Part shown: positions 12,505 to 25,502 of the stretch, one piece after another
Layout: each line of letters begins with the position of its first letter
Position numbering within the stretch: the stretch's first letter is position 1
NCBI RefSeq assembly: GCF_002082015.1
Contig: NZ_CP015109.1
Location: 116,134 to 148,133 of the forward strand
Source of the DNA: Sporosarcina ureae
GTDB taxonomy: Bacteria; Bacillota; Bacilli; Bacillales_A; Planococcaceae
DNA length: 32,000 bases
Direction of reading: 5' to 3'
The notes under the pieces: generated by a model
Database searches by the model: none
The model's input: the letters and a program-made list of their open reading frames with translations, nothing else
Told to the model about the DNA's origin: nothing
Made by a program: the position numbers and the translations under genes

Positions 12505-13344
12505 TCATAACAACATCCGCAAATACTTCTCAAAGTTCACTCCTGCTTCTACTGGTGTGTCGTACAAATCGGTATCCTTTATAGCGGCCATCAAAAATTC
12601 CTCTGCCAATGTAATCGCTTGTTCTGTTGACATACCACGCATCCTGCCACCCATAAGTACCGATGCGAATAAATCTCCAGTGCCCGAATAGCTTTTGCCA
12701 TTGTATGGTACGAAGCTACAATGAGTATCCGTCTTGTTAATAAACATATTTCCGACGACGTCTTGACGTCCAGGTGGATTGATGCCTGTGATGACAATTT
12801 CTGCGCTAGTTTTCTGCTGAAGCTGTTGGCCAACTTCTTGCACGGCCTTCAAATAATCCCGTTCGTCAGGAAACCGTAAGAGCTCATCATATGAATAGCC
12901 AGTCAATAAGCAACACTCCGTAATGTTCGGCGTAATAACGTCTGCCCGCGCGACTAGAACTTTCATTTGTTCCAGAAGTTCCTCGTCAAAATTATCATAC
13001 GCTTTTCCATTGTCACCCAGCACGGGATCCACGAGCAATAGCGTCTGATCACGATAAAAGTTTTCGAGAAACGTGAGGATCTGGTGAATTTGCTCTTTGC
13101 CTGTAATATATCCGGTATGAATGCCGTCAAACGAAATATTTAGATTCTTCCATTCTTCCGTATAGAGCGACATAACGTTCGTAAGATCATGACAATAATA
13201 GCTCGGGTATTCTGTTTGTGCAGATAAAACCGCAGTAGGCAGTGGACACGCCTGCACGCCCATCACCGAAAGCACTGGCATGGCGGCAGTGAGTGAACAT
13301 TTACCGAATGAAGATAAATCTTGAATAATGGCAACTTTTTTCAT
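12505..13344 (-). CDS. pdxK: pyridoxal/pyridoxine/pyridoxamine kinase (ribokinase superfamily)
   Basis: MKKVAIIQDLSSFGKCSLTAAMPVLSVMGVQACPLPTAVLS... plus the C-terminal GTGDLFAS motif are typical of the PdxK/PdxY family. GGAGG RBS. Confidence 0.8.
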   Translation of the reverse strand: MKKVAIIQDLSSFGKCSLTAAMPVLSVMGVQACPLPTAVLSAQTEYPSYYCHDLTNVMSLYTEEWKNLNISFDGIHTGYITGKEQIHQILTFLENFYRDQTLLLVDPVLGDNGKAYDNFDEELLEQMKVLVARADVITPNITECCLLTGYSYDELLRFPDERDYLKAVQEVGQQLQQKTSAEIVITGINPPGRQDVVGNMFINKTDTHCSFVPYNGKSYSGTGDLFASVLMGGRMRGMSTEQAITLAEEFLMAAIKDTDLYDTPVEAGVNFEKYLRMLL

Positions 13345-17486: not shown

Positions 17487-17722
17487 TTTCGCGAAATCTC
17501 TAAAGTACTTACTGAGAGAGTTGCCGTCTCCTGAACAAAGTTTGTATTTATGAAATTTCCCAGGAAACGTTTAAAGCTTTCGACATATACACAAACGTCA
17601 TTTTCGGATGACTTAGCGTAGCGGTCAAACAGATTTCCACCCGAAGTATAAGTGATTAACTTCCAATGATTCTGACCATACTGTCAGTAGAAATGGAAAA
17701 CACTTTGTTGAGGAGGAATACA

Positions 17723-19369
17723 GTGGAAAAGAAACAACATAAACAGCATGATGGTCAAATGGAAGAGCGAGAGACACTTACGACACGCCAAGGGCATCCT
17801 GTACAGGATAATCAAAACATCAGGACGATTGGCGACCGCGGCCCTGCTACGCTCGAGAATTATCATTTTATCGAAAAAATCTCTCATTTTGATCGTGAGG
17901 AAATACCTGAACGAGTAGTCCATGCAAGAGGCTCGGGTGCATTTGGTTACTTTGAAACGTATGGGAAAGTCGGGAATGAGCCAGTTGAAAAGTACACCCG
18001 TGCCAAAGTATTTTCAGGTGCTGGAAAAAGAACGCCTCTCGTCGCGCGTTTCTCTACTGTAGCAGGCGCTAAAGATTCGCCTGAAACTGCACGAGATCCG
18101 CGAGGTTTTGCGGTGAAGATGTATACGGAAGATGGCAACTGGGATTTGGTAGGAAATAATTTGAAAATATTTTTCATTCGGGATGCGATGAAGTTTCCTG
18201 ATATGATCCACGCATTCAAGGCCGATCCAGCTTCCAATATATCGCATCCACAACGCATGTTTGACTTTGTCTCCCGATCGCCAGAATCTATTCATATGAT
18301 CACGTTTTTGTTTTCGCCATGGGGCATTCCTGCCACGTATCGTCACATGCAAGGCTCAGGTGTGAATACATACAAGTGGGTCAATGACAAAGGTGAAGCA
18401 GTTCTAGTGAAGTATCATTGGGAGCCGAAACAAGGTATACGAAATTTAACTCAGCAAGATGCCGACGCTGTGCAGGCGAAAAACGTTGCACATGCTACGC
18501 AAGATTTATCTGAAGCGATCGAACGTAAAGAATATCCTGAATGGGAACTGTTCGTGCAAATTATGGAAGATGGATACCACCCGGAACTTGATTTTGATCC
18601 GCTCGATAATACCAAGCTTTGGCCGGAGGAACAGTATCCTTGGCTACCAGTAGGAAAGATGGTATTAGATCGCAACCCCGAGGATTTTCATATGGACATT
18701 GAACAAGCCGCTTTCGGGACCGGCGTACTGGTAGACGGAATGGATTTTTCCGACGACAAAATGCTTCAAGGCCGCACATTTTCGTATTCGGATACACAAC
18801 GTCATCGGATCGGCACGAATTATCTCCAGTTACCTGTAAATGCGCCGAAAAAAGCGGTCCGGACGAACCAGCAACGGGGTCAAATGGACCAACGTGATCC
18901 TCGTGAGTCAGGAGAAAACCCACATATAAACTATGAACCATCCATGCTCGGTGGATTTCAAGAAGCAACAGGAGAAAGCCGCCCTCCGCACAGACCTACG
19001 TACAACGCAGCAGCACTGAGTGCACCAATTGACCGACCCAATAATTATGGACAAGCCGGCGAGACTTTCCGCCAGTTTGAAGAGTGGGAACGAGAAGAAT
19101 TAATCAAAAACCTCTCTGATGCGTTAGCAGTGTGTGATGTACGTATTCAAGAAGCGATGATCGAACACTTCACGCAAGCGGATTATGAATACGGGCGTCT
19201 TGTACAAGAAGGTATTGAACGGAAAATGAAGGAACTAGAAGGAGTGGCAGCAGAAGCTGACATCCCGGGTCGTGAGGCGGGTCAATCAAAGTTTGGACAA
19301 GGTACACCTGATTCTAAAACGGCAGTGAAAGATGCAGTGGACAAAGGCCATGAAGCAGATCCATATTGA
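17723..19369 (+). CDS. monofunctional heme catalase (KatX-size, about 548 aa)
   Basis: Catalase signature ...[13 protein letters not shown]-like ([20 protein letters not shown]), [20 protein letters not shown]-like ([14 protein letters not shown]). GAGGAGG RBS before GTG 17723. Confidence 0.9.
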
Positions 19370-19428
19370 TGAAGAAGTACAACGCTTTTTATCCAAATTG
19401 ATAGATGTTGTGAATAAAGAGTGACTAG

Positions 19429-19493
19429 CATCTGTATAGGACACTTATGTGATTGTGCAAGCAAACACATGGGGTTCTTATACAGGTGTTTTT
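19429..19493 (+). terminator. long-stem terminator after catalase
   Basis: CATCTGTATAGG (19429-19440) pairs with CTTATACAGGTG (19477-19488) with two G-U pairs. The loop carries an inner hairpin, followed by T5. Confidence 0.55.
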
Positions 19494-19619
19494 GATTTGC
19501 TAATCTCTTATCCAATTGATCAATTATCATGAACAATTAAACTCAGCTTGTAAAATTCATACCGAAAATCAATTCGTACAATCAATTATTTGATACCTAT
19601 GCCTTTTCGTACGTACAAA

Positions 19620-20062
19620 ATTCAATTTCTCCATTTTAACGGTTTTTTTATTCCCTGTATTATATTGAGTTCAACACAATAAATAACAGAATAGTTAGAA
19701 AAATTAACAGAAAAATGATATACTTTACACTAAGAAGTGTCTGGAGCCGATTACGATGAATGATAAACATTTGTAAAAAGTATTCATAAGCTAGAATGAA
19801 CTGATCCTAGATTCAGATGGACGACTTGCCTATGAAGTGCGTTTGAAACAAGTACTAGATCAGAAGACTACAGTGAATGAAGCGAAGTGGAGGAAGGAGA
19901 AGGCAAGGGGGGAAGGAGTAGAAAAAGCAATACCAATAGGAGTAGAAAGGATAGTCCAAACAACGCATAGCATTTAAAGGAGAATATAGATTTAGAGTCG
20001 TAGCCAAAATAACCAGCTTATTTATTGAACATGTAAAATTGTTGAAAGAAGATGTAGAGTAG
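19620..20062 (+). pseudogene. decayed, internally deleted copy of the rpn gene (promoter + 5'UTR fused to C-terminal domain)
   Basis: 19620-19740 aligns with 24341-24459, and 19741-19975 aligns codon for codon with 25107-25340. There are in-frame TAA (19774) and TAG (19792) stops, then a frameshift near 19975. Homology continues to the stop at 20060-20062. Confidence 0.75.
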
Positions 20063-20124
20063 ATTCCTGTTGACATGATAAAAACATCACTTACAACTTG
20101 CTGAAAAGATTGGGAGGTGAAATT

Positions 20125-20331
20125 GTGAATAAGTCCTTTTGGATTCCATTAATGGTTTCATTTGGAACGATGATATTCCTATATGTAATAGGCTTTATCG
20201 CTAATATAGACATTCTCATATTTAACATTTCACTCTCGCATACTGAAATTTCTCTACTACCGATCGGTGCTGGTATGGTAATGGGCTTTATTACTGAACG
20301 TATGATCAAGTCGAAATCACATGCCAATTAG
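20125..20331 (+). CDS. small hypothetical membrane protein (2 TM)
   Basis: GGGAGGTG RBS before GTG 20125. Two clear hydrophobic helices. No recognisable family. Confidence 0.5.
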   Translation: MNKSFWIPLMVSFGTMIFLYVIGFIANIDILIFNISLSHTEISLLPIGAGMVMGFITERMIKSKSHAN

Positions 20332-20499
20332 CATTGAAGGAGAGCATGATCTAGCATCATACGTAGGGCGTTAGTTAATTCTTTGAAATCTGTGAAATTG
20401 GTTATCTATAGTATAGAATTATTGAAGTATGTAGTGGCTAACTATTGTGCAACAATCAAAGTTAGGAAAATATTATAATATGTAAAGGGGGCACAGTGC

Positions 20500-24156: not shown

Positions 24157-24413
24157 GGAATCAACCTCCAGTAGAATCAATATATTACTTGGTTATAAGT
24201 GTATCACTATCACTAAGGCTTGGTAAATTCCAACCCTCTAAGAGAAACTTCAACAATTCAATTTCATCTTCAAAAAACACATCAAAATCGAATTCCTAAA
24301 ATTAAATTCCTCATACCTACAACATCCCCTTCTTTATATAATTCATTTTCCCCATTTTGACGATTTTCTAATTCTGTCATATGCTGATTTCAACACAGTA
24401 ACTAACAGAACAG

Positions 24414-24443
24414 TTAGAAAAATCATCGGAAAAATGATATACT
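24414..24443 (+). promoter_or_regulatory. candidate promoter of rpn (conserved in the decayed copy)
   Basis: TTAGAA (24414-24419), 18 nt, TGaTATACT (-10 hexamer 24438-24443). The same block is present at about 19693-19722. Confidence 0.5.
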
Positions 24444-24470
24444 TTATTCTAAGAAGTGTGAGGAAACCGC

Positions 24471-25436
24471 ATGAACAAACGAGCGATGAAACGGATCTAT
24501 GTAAAGAATTTAGTAGATTTAAAAATTGATTTTGCGTTTAAAGAATTATTTGGCAGCGGGAAAAACAAAGCGATTACCATTATTTTTCTGAATGCCATTC
24601 TCAAACGAACCGGCCGGAATTCAATTAAAGAAGTAACCTTTATAAATCCAGAAATTGGTGCAGAATATGAAGACGACAAGCTATCGCGTCTGGATATTTT
24701 GGTCACCACACAGGATCGGCATCAGATTAATATTGAAATGCAATTTACGAATCAATATGATATGGTCAATCGCAGTGTGTATTATTGGGCTAGATTATAC
24801 AGTGAGCAAAATAAAAGGGGAATGGCATACAATACACTACAACCTACCATTATGATGAACATAATGAATTTTAATTTGATTTCGGAAACGGAAGGATATC
24901 ATACGACGTATCACTTACATGAAGATGAAAAGAAATTTCGTATAGCGGATGGATTGGAATTGCATTTCATTGAAATACCGAAGCTGCTTGCGCATTGGTA
25001 TGATGAAAAGCTCGACCCGTGGAATGACGTATTGGCTCGATGGTTGCTTCTATTAAGTATCGTAGACCAACGAAAACAACATATTTACGAAGACATTTAC
25101 AAAGAACTGGAGGCGATTGCGATGACTGACAAACATCTGCAAGATGCATTTATAAGTTGGAATGAAATGAGTCTAGATTCGGATGGACGACTTGCCTACG
25201 AAGTGCGCTTAAAACAAGTTCTGGATCAAGAAGCGGCGTTAAATGAGGCGAAGTGGAGAGAAAAGAAGGCTAGGGAGGAAGGGATAGAAAAGGGAATAGA
25301 AAAGGGCAAGACAGAGGAGAAAGAACATATTGCACGTAAACTTCTACTGAAGAAACTAGGTGTAGAAATTGTGGCTGAAACAACGGGGTTATCTTTAGAG
25401 CGTGTGCAAGAGATGAAAGCAGAATTAGGTTTATAA
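24471..25436 (+). CDS. Rpn family recombination-promoting nuclease / putative transposase (YhgA-like, PDDEXK_2)
   Basis: N-terminal DFAFKELFG...FLNAIL...EDDKLSRLDILV...INIEMQ (PD-(D/E)XK core) and HFIEIPK are the TIGR01784/Rpn signature. The C-terminus is Lys/Glu-rich. Confidence 0.85.
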   Translation: MNKRAMKRIYVKNLVDLKIDFAFKELFGSGKNKAITIIFLNAILKRTGRNSIKEVTFINPEIGAEYEDDKLSRLDILVTTQDRHQINIEMQFTNQYDMVNRSVYYWARLYSEQNKRGMAYNTLQPTIMMNIMNFNLISETEGYHTTYHLHEDEKKFRIADGLELHFIEIPKLLAHWYDEKLDPWNDVLARWLLLLSIVDQRKQHIYEDIYKELEAIAMTDKHLQDAFISWNEMSLDSDGRLAYEVRLKQVLDQEAALNEAKWREKKAREEGIEKGIEKGKTEEKEHIARKLLLKKLGVEIVAETTGLSLERVQEMKAELGL

Positions 25437-25502
25437 ATTTTAGCTAGGGAATTTCAATGTATCGGAAACCGGCATCTCATTTACAGGGCATAAGCTGATA
25501 AG

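Follow-up and report, generated by a model that had tools for sequence, protein, structure and literature searches.

The 32,000-nucleotide (nt) stretch of Sporosarcina ureae contig NZ_CP015109.1 analyzed here (the window) contains an intact gene for an Rpn nuclease and, 4.4 kb upstream of this parent gene, a second, decayed rpn copy, which we refer to as the relic. Rpn systems have been described as toxin-antitoxin genes within genes, in which the full-length nuclease RpnL is toxic and RpnS, the C-terminal part translated from an internal start, neutralizes it (Zhong et al. 2023, PNAS, PMC10400941); RpnL and RpnS have also been linked to antiphage defense (PMC10400941). The relic lies between a catalase gene (17666-19369), whose protein is 95% identical to that of S. 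ureae DSM 2281 and places the window in the Sporosarcina ureae group, and a gene for a small membrane protein. It extends from about 220 nt upstream of the copied gene through the stop codon.

The fused copy and its junction

The intact rpn gene encodes 321 amino acids, with a PD-(D/E)XK nuclease domain followed by a C-terminal domain (C-domain). Its product matches PF12784 (PDDEXK_2) with an expectation value (E) of 1.3e-60 and 205 bits (cut-off 27.4), and TIGR01784 (Rpn family recombination-promoting nuclease/putative transposase) with 214.4 bits (cut-off 52.1) over profile positions 1-272 of 273. The predicted internal start is strongly conserved: TGGAGG and ATG at 25108-25124 are invariant, synonymous positions included, in eight of nine intact copies in which the neighboring codons are variable, and the ninth copy has GTG. 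The internal methionine is also kept in distant full-length homologues.

Pairwise blastn of 19500-20150 against 24250-25500 resolved the relic into two collinear blocks, 19532-19745 matching 24252-24464 (162/217, 75%, E 2e-36) and 19724-20057 matching 25096-25428 (244/344, 71%, E 1e-50). In the first block, identity to the upstream region of intact rpn rises to 88.7% in the core at 19670-19740, and a global alignment of 19620-19740 with 24341-24459 gave 100/121 identities (82.6%), within the 80-85% estimated in a preliminary description of the locus. At 19740|19741 the relic reads ...TAAGAAGTGT|CTGGAGCCGATTACGATG. The intact gene has its counterparts at 24459|24460 (...TAAGAAGTGT|GAGGAAACCGCATG) and at 25106|25107 (...AAAGAA|CTGGAGGCGATTGCGATG), a skip of 647 bp that had been put at about 650 bp. 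The left flank of the junction is the rpn 5' untranslated region (5'UTR) just 5' of the GAGGA ribosome-binding site of the full-length gene, and the right flank begins 15 nt upstream of the internal start codon, Met218 in the intact gene. The junction thus adjoins the internal translation signals, standing 2 nt upstream of the internal GGAG. The deletion took out the full-length ribosome-binding site, the start codon and the entire nuclease domain and left the internal GGAG and ATG in place, as had been described. In agreement with this direct reading, tblastn aligned residues 211-279 of Rpn, plus the tail in another frame, and found no counterpart of residues 1-210 in 19620-20062.

The short frame that begins at the internal ATG no longer encodes a protein. 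Two stop codons lie in frame at the coordinates given in the preliminary description, TAA at 19774 and TAG at 19792, where the intact gene has CAA and TGG, respectively, and similarity to Rpn runs across both (48/69 residues identical, 70%, tblastn E 4e-29). A frameshift had been placed near 19975; the frameshift itself was confirmed, but the frame is lost at about 19925-19955, within the degenerate four-amino-acid repeats, and the TAA at 19975 is where the old frame ends. From 19955 on, homology can be followed in the +1 frame up to the stop at 20060-20062, as claimed. With two stops and a frameshift, the relic fails to provide the intact reading frame that a gene for a small protein would have. 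An antisense reading frame at 19855-20076 (73 amino acids) was considered as a gene and rejected, as its translation is low-complexity nonsense. No other significant Rpn-like sequence was found in the window, where the remaining tblastn matches all had E > 0.3.

The region is AT-rich and its repeat part is purine-rich, a composition that could in principle produce a chance or low-complexity similarity with no true homology. This explanation is already refuted by the expectation values of the blastn and tblastn alignments and by the presence of the same structure in about 15 related genomes, where it occupies the orthologous position.

Table 1. Coordinates of the relic, the neighboring elements and the intact rpn locus in the window.
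Feature	Position	Strand	Basis or remark
Intrinsic terminator of the catalase gene: long hairpin, then U-run	19426..19494	+	RNA fold -35.8 kcal/mol, z = -6.5 vs shuffles
Copy of the rpn upstream region, promoter and first 5'UTR bases	19532..19740	+	Paralogous to 24252-24459; 75% over 212 columns
Predicted sigma-70-type promoter TAGAAA-17-TATACT, TG-extended -10	19696..19724	+	Consensus scan; same as 24415-24443
Fusion junction GTGT|CTGGAG	19737..19746	+	Direct reading; also in groups A, B, C and L090
Internal ribosome-binding site GGAG (19743-19746) and ATG (19756-19758)	19743..19758	+	Homologous to TGGAGG...ATG, 25108-25124
Decayed short frame, 73 codons if stops are repaired	19756..19977	+	C-domain head and degenerate 4-amino-acid repeats; TAA 19774, TAG 19792, end TAA 19975
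Degenerate 4-amino-acid repeats GVEK AIPI GVER	19917..19955	+	Frameshift inside, +4 nt vs intact copy
C-domain tail (end of long helix and helix-turn-helix)	19955..20062	+	Readable in +1 frame only; ends TAG 20060-20062
Gene for 68-amino-acid protein, two hydrophobic segments, GTG start, GGAGGTG ribosome-binding site	20125..20331	+	Homologues at all Sporosarcina loci examined
Upstream region of intact rpn: promoter (24415-24443), 5'UTR, ribosome-binding site GAGGA	24252..24470	+	Source paralogue of the relic's left half; 85-87% identity between species
Intact rpn, 321 amino acids, PD-(D/E)XK nuclease domain and C-domain	24471..25436	+	PF12784, TIGR01784
Predicted internal translation start: GGAGG, 8 nt, ATG (Met218)	25109..25124	+	Conservation
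7-nt direct repeat pair TGCAAGA (25138, 25405), 267 nt apart, in frame	25138..25411	+	Relic equivalents TGTAAAA at 19772, 20032
Four-amino-acid repeats GIEK x2	25281..25304	+	Repeat-number comparison

The site in related genomes

The spacer between the catalase gene and the small gene was gathered from about 15 related genomes. The genes flanking it are only 83-90% identical in nucleotide sequence to those of the window, and the genomes therefore represent distinct species-level lineages. In each of them the spacer contains a copy of the rpn promoter, and a full-length rpn at the site is absent from all of these loci. The junction, GTGTCT(G/A)(G/T)AG..GAT(T/C)GC, is common to four other Sporosarcina lineages represented by nine genomes, namely group A (L082-84), group B (L086-89), group C (L001, L085) and L090. 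Since the junction is shared and no full-length rpn occupies the site, the deletion is ancestral and not strain-specific, and the comparison of these sequences shows a single old fusion event that took place before at least five species-level Sporosarcina lineages diverged. In a fifth other lineage, the P group (L002, L091-93, L095), the junction is decayed and permits no statistical assignment. Two readings of it were compared with shuffled sequences; a retained full-length 5' end was matched as well by 59 of 500 shuffles and a fusion of the shared type by 221-449 of 500, so that neither was convincing.

Among the genomes compared, a C-domain of about 310 nt is kept only in the window, and the intact orthologue of the short gene that had been proposed as a check was not found. 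In groups A, B and C and in L090, about 30 nt of the 5' end of the C-domain are joined to about 30 nt of its 3' end, a vestige of the form expected from an in-frame deletion of about 250 nt between 7-nt direct repeats. Both relic counterparts of these repeats (19772-19778 and 20032-20038) differ from TGCAAGA by the same two transitions, which may be a coincidence; the first of the two at 19772-19778 creates the TAA stop at 19774. The same four lineages are also without about 115 nt farther upstream (19495-19610), a segment that is partly kept in the P group, where a different upstream deletion has occurred. In a tree built from 4 kb of flanking genes, the window and group C come out as sisters (91.5% bootstrap support). 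A Neobacillus homologue of the small gene (L094) has no catalase gene and no rpn-like promoter upstream and is uninformative on the state of the site before insertion.

Conservation across the spacer was measured as mean pairwise identity by segment among eight lineage representatives. The two highest values within the relic fall on the promoter elements: the -35 block (ACAGA.TAGTTAGA) has a mean identity of 0.889 with 13 of 18 columns invariant, and the TG-extended -10 with the start region has 0.871, again with 13 of 18 invariant. The stretch between -35 and -10 reaches 0.565 (1 of 12 invariant), the internal ribosome-binding site with its ATG 0.518 (2 of 18 invariant) and other intergenic segments 0.63-0.65, as compared with 0.86 for the 3' end of the catalase gene. 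This footprint leads us to infer that selection maintains the rpn-derived promoter in every lineage, including those in which the coding part has been deleted; although the preliminary description spoke of a relic promoter, it is not a relic in the sense of a dead one.

Selection on the short frame and its interpretation

An AlphaFold2 model of the 104-residue C-domain (predicted local distance difference test score 90.8) is all-helical, with helices at residues 4-18, 20-76 (57 residues, with the repeats inside), 81-88 and 92-102. Divergence of the relic was estimated by the Nei-Gojobori method over the 59 codons after the junction, with stop codons excluded, against the consensus of six intact copies. 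For this head portion, synonymous divergence (dS) was 0.81 (0.80-1.10 against individual copies) and nonsynonymous divergence (dN) 0.112, a ratio of 0.14; intact orthologues compared among themselves over the head gave dS of 0.26-0.54 and a ratio of about 0.1. The relic tail (35 codons in the +1 frame) gave dS of 1.09, dN of 0.575 and a ratio of 0.53, where the tail ratio among intact orthologues is 0.1-0.3, and these relic tail values are those expected if the relic branch had been neutral over its whole length. Head and tail differ in their nonsynonymous changes (Fisher p = 5e-7) and not in their synonymous changes (p = 0.59). Equal silent divergence of the two parts argues against a later gene conversion of the head.

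The age of the fusion provides a further comparison. Catalase dS between the window and the lineages that share the junction is 0.46-0.64, which implies that at least about 0.23 neutral substitutions per site have accumulated in the window lineage after the fusion. A head that had been neutral since then is predicted to carry at least 23-37 replacement changes, against an observed maximum of 14 (Poisson p = 0.03 to 1e-5). We therefore hold with moderate confidence that the head, comprising the first helix and most of the repeat-bearing long helix, was translated and selected well after the fusion, and with similar confidence that the helix-turn-helix tail has been unconstrained since roughly the time of the duplication. 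Given a selected head and a drifting tail, the working product was probably a tail-less protein of about 73 amino acids ending at the TAA at 19975, an estimate drawn from about 95 codons with no outgroup. This short product was probably kept after the fusion and died recently.

Taken together, the data make it reasonably likely that the locus is the dead remnant of a stand-alone gene of the rpnS type, in which the C-terminal domain of an Rpn nuclease was expressed alone. The sequence itself shows a copy of the rpn locus in which the 647-bp deletion placed the internal ribosome-binding site and Met218 behind the rpn promoter and 5'UTR. Under this explanation, the first 60 or so codons of the fused gene would then have remained under purifying selection long after the fusion, with the tail drifting since about the duplication. 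Death of the gene would be recent in the window lineage, through the changes of CAA to TAA and TGG to TAG, and would have come about in the other lineages through the deletion of about 250 nt between the 7-nt repeats. Judging from E. coli RpnS (Zhong et al. 2023), the short product may have attached to the corresponding helix of the full-length Rpn, whose gene lies 4.4 kb away, and kept it from being toxic, and the short gene may have ceased to be useful once this partner's repeat number had changed. The surviving promoter, which appears to be under selection, would most likely drive the downstream gene for the 68-amino-acid membrane protein. The preliminary description had offered a deletion derivative and a once free-standing antitoxin-only gene as alternatives, and the evidence favors both in sequence, with the deletion coming before a short gene that was kept translated.

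A more specific version of this explanation can be put forward only tentatively. Here the relic would have been a long-kept, tail-less mini-RpnS of about 73 amino acids, expressed from a copy of the toxin promoter and acting in trans as an inhibitor of Rpn, with the promoter later co-opted for the membrane-protein gene. If this is true, the dimerization helix alone would suffice for antitoxin function. The combination of a conserved head and an unconserved tail provides a testable idea as to which part of RpnS is needed for neutralization. More broadly, the locus would record the life cycle of an orphan antitoxin, from birth by deletion through maintenance by selection to independent death in sister lineages and an afterlife of the promoter.

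Several points weigh against this reconstruction. When the Poisson test is calibrated on intergenic identity with the closest lineage, it weakens to p of about 0.2, and the differences specific to the relic are distributed over the three codon positions as 8/5/13, which is not significantly uneven when taken alone. The dN/dS argument draws on about 60 head codons, lacks an outgroup to the duplication and presupposes a molecular clock. Retention of the C-domain in the window alone conflicts with the flanking-gene tree, and this conflict calls for repeated identical deletions, recombination of the spacer between lineages, or re-acquisition by the window. A search of 5.8 billion proteins with the repaired relic protein did not turn up an intact orthologue of the short gene and returned two matches only, both of the main-locus type at 53-54% identity. 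Foldseek with the C-domain model gave no significant match in the PDB and did not recover RpnA-S (PDB 7TH0), a helical bundle whose long first helix dimerizes, with weak helix-turn-helix matches over the last 40 or so residues; a PDB sequence search with full-length Rpn produced only chance matches to ribosomal proteins. It is possible that an unseen divergent rpn paralogue served as a donor for gene conversion, as the paralogue comparison covered the window. Use of the promoter by the small gene is drawn from position and conservation only. The antitoxin role is an analogy with a different Rpn subfamily, the gene studied here belonging to PF12784 and the E. coli Rpn proteins to PF04754.

The selection data bear most directly on the alternative that the relic is an accidental deletion derivative that never functioned, that is, an rpn pseudogene in which a random 647-bp deletion fell beside the internal start by chance and which has decayed neutrally since. 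Bacterial pseudogenes decay mainly by deletion, and the spacer has several further lineage-specific deletions; two stops and one frameshift in about 100 codons are close to the neutral-drift expectation for this divergence, and the codon-position count is compatible with drift. The P-group junction might in addition keep the full-length ribosome-binding site (GAGAAAAC vs GAGGAAAC), which would point to a full-length ancestor, a resemblance that is not significant against the shuffles described above. These points are countered by the roughly fourfold deficit of replacements in the head relative to the tail at equal dS, and by the sharing of the junction with lineages at a catalase distance over which a neutral head should be far more diverged, and we regard a purely accidental origin as unlikely. 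The position of the window beside group C in the flanking tree favors another possibility, namely that the vestige of about 60 nt is ancestral and that the window re-acquired the middle of the C-domain (about 250 nt) and about 115 nt upstream by recombination or gene conversion from an rpn copy. One gain would be more parsimonious than three identical losses, and rpn genes are known to duplicate and recombine (PMC10400941). Head dS against the neighboring rpn gene is 0.8-1.1, like that of the tail and the promoter, so that any conversion must date back to the duplication; restoration would have had to reach two separate tracts and yet leave out the nuclease domain; and both ends of the relic share derived states with the vestiges (a TAG stop one codon early, and GAATGA for GACTGA). 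Moreover, 19495-19535 is also kept in the P group, whose own upstream deletion differs, which points to independent deletions from a long ancestor, and recurrence of the C-domain deletion is plausible given its bounding 7-nt direct repeats. Re-acquisition is accordingly a rather improbable account of the site.

The conservation footprint raises a different question, whether the locus is a working promoter or operator copy serving the small membrane-protein gene or a shared regulator, with the coding remnant carried as a passenger in the leader. All lineages conserve the promoter elements but not the internal ribosome-binding site and its ATG, the genes downstream are insulated by the catalase terminator, and the spacer has no other promoter-like site and no terminator before 20125. 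This reading does not account for why the head shows coding-type conservation in the window lineage, and promoter-like matches in the AT-rich spacer are no more numerous than in shuffled sequence (6 vs 4.7 +/- 2.4). We judge it to have about an even chance of being correct. It is compatible with the explanation of the locus as a dead stand-alone rpnS-type gene and forms part of that explanation for the present-day state.

Orphan antitoxins are toxin-deleted remnants of type II toxin-antitoxin loci that can neutralize a related toxin elsewhere in the genome. The relic resembles them in having lost the toxin part and kept the antitoxin part under the original promoter, and differs in that toxin and antitoxin here occupy one reading frame, so that a single internal deletion swaps the ribosome-binding sites. 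RpnS is also produced from separate genes, termed rpnSs (ypaA/rpnE-Ss and rpnC-Ss in E. coli; DUF4351), which originated from the adjacent rpn and can be lost again by deletion (PMC10400941). Like these, the relic consists of the C-terminal domain only, starts at the internal translation start, has a ribosome-binding site and start codon of its own, derives from the neighboring rpn and not from another small gene, and carries the four-amino-acid repeat region, here degenerate (GVEK-AIPI-GVER). In contrast to the rpnSs, which lie immediately downstream of the parent and use an internal promoter, it lies 4.4 kb upstream and arose from a full duplicate minus the nuclease domain, which gave it a copy of the full-length promoter. 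It further differs in that only its head appears to have been maintained and it is now a pseudogene, and in belonging to the PF12784 (PDDEXK_2) branch with no match to DUF4351. DUF4351 (PF14261) was not matched at E <= 1 by the intact C-domain, the repaired relic or the orthologous 101-residue protein P0002 described below, nor by any of 37 short homologues at E <= 0.01, and weak precomputed matches to HTH_Rpn_C (PF27070) exist for P0002 and for a 131-amino-acid product of L087.

The intact gene itself resembles published intragenic systems in its PD-(D/E)XK domain, its strong conserved internal start and its helical C-domain with hypervariable repeats. The repeats lie about 53 residues after the predicted internal methionine, unlike the 8-20 residues of the published proteins (PMC10400941). 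Repeat number varies among the intact orthologous C-domains, with GIEK x2 in the window, GIEK x1 in L082, L081, L087 and L002, and GIEQ x6 in L085, which matches the hypervariability reported for Rpn proteins of other phyla. Two Rpn hallmarks, an internal start whose synonymous positions are conserved and a count of four-amino-acid repeats that varies, are thus extended to Sporosarcina. What is new at this locus is its origin from a full duplicate that lost the nuclease domain, the different fates of head and tail, and the apparent afterlife of the promoter. The claim in the preliminary description that the C-terminal module has had an independent evolutionary life was borne out, with the restriction that only the head seems to have been maintained and the tail looks neutral since the duplication, and such a life was already published for the rpnSs (PMC10400941). 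As free-standing rpnS genes and their turnover are known from the same work, the current picture of Rpn systems is unchanged.

Regulatory elements, the small gene and other rpn loci

The catalase gene ends in a strong intrinsic terminator, and the genes downstream therefore need a promoter of their own. Its hairpin is unusually long, with about 27 paired positions, and is conserved across 13 genomes. The arms of the stem change together between lineages (CTGTATAGGA...TCTTATACAG vs CTATATAGGC...GCCGTATATAG), as they do in the P group. An Rfam scan of 19300-20400 returned only a sub-threshold small RNA match within this terminator (15.8 bits vs a cut-off of 42). Between the terminator and the small gene, promoter-like sites occur only inside the relic, and no terminator-like site or significant structure was found between the relic and 20125. 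The rpn-derived promoter thus most likely now transcribes the 68-amino-acid membrane-protein gene, as judged from its position and conservation.

A palindrome of 5+6+5 nt, CTAAC-AGAACA-GTTAG (CTAACAGAACAGTTAG), abuts or overlaps the -35 of intact rpn at 24399-24414 and is conserved in three species. In its relic counterpart (19680-19695), only the right half and the center are invariant among the relic copies. The palindrome could be an operator, as the C-domain of Rpn is helix-turn-helix-like, and if this domain autoregulates the promoter, the membrane-protein gene would be wired to an Rpn regulator. A second element, CATCAC(T/G)(T/G)ACA(A/G)C at 20086-20100 (ATCACTTACAAC), is located about 25 nt upstream of the ribosome-binding site of the small gene and has a mean identity of 0.78 across all Sporosarcina lineages. 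The 68-amino-acid protein is 100% identical to an S. ureae database protein, and homologues are also found in Neobacillus and Mesobacillus in unrelated contexts. It is labeled 'ATPase' in NCBI Sporosarcina records, and with no match in Pfam or NCBIfam this name looks unfounded.

The main rpn locus is unstable across the clade. It is intact in the window, L001, L002 and L085, carries a 223-bp internal deletion in L082 (7570-8534) and has been lost entirely in L086 and L088 (about 13196-13288). In L087 (13076-13480) and L081 (311-716), the last 407 or so nt of rpn are left, with an unrelated gene for 149 amino acids upstream in place of the nuclease domain. The intact 101-amino-acid frame that starts at the internal methionine in these two genomes (P0002) is possibly a live antitoxin-only gene. 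In the P group, a second decayed rpn copy follows an AHSA1-family gene (L092:9454-9950, L093:1906-2430) and comprises a PDDEXK_2 fragment of 107-127 amino acids and a frameshifted C-domain. Another observation from this group concerns Sporosarcina sp. P18a (L091:5711-8001), where no catalase is called even though the DNA aligns at 87% over the whole gene, which may be a pseudogene.

An exhaustive profile-free search with the 104-residue C-domain returned 691 relatives, and the top of the list was dominated by proteins of 95-140 amino acids that start at the homologous methionine. A reading of these homologues of about 100 amino acids as widespread free-standing genes was downgraded, as most are singletons from metagenomic contigs shorter than 7 kb and could be artefacts of gene calling on truncated genes, and they are used here only as support for conservation of the start site. 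In the complete genome of Anaerobacillus isosaccharinicus (CP063356.2; L096:2789-3333), a C-domain frame of 110 amino acids with GREE/GLEE repeats lies directly 3' of a 68-amino-acid PDDEXK_2 stub. By its gene structure, this is an independent loss of the nuclease domain with the C-domain frame left intact.

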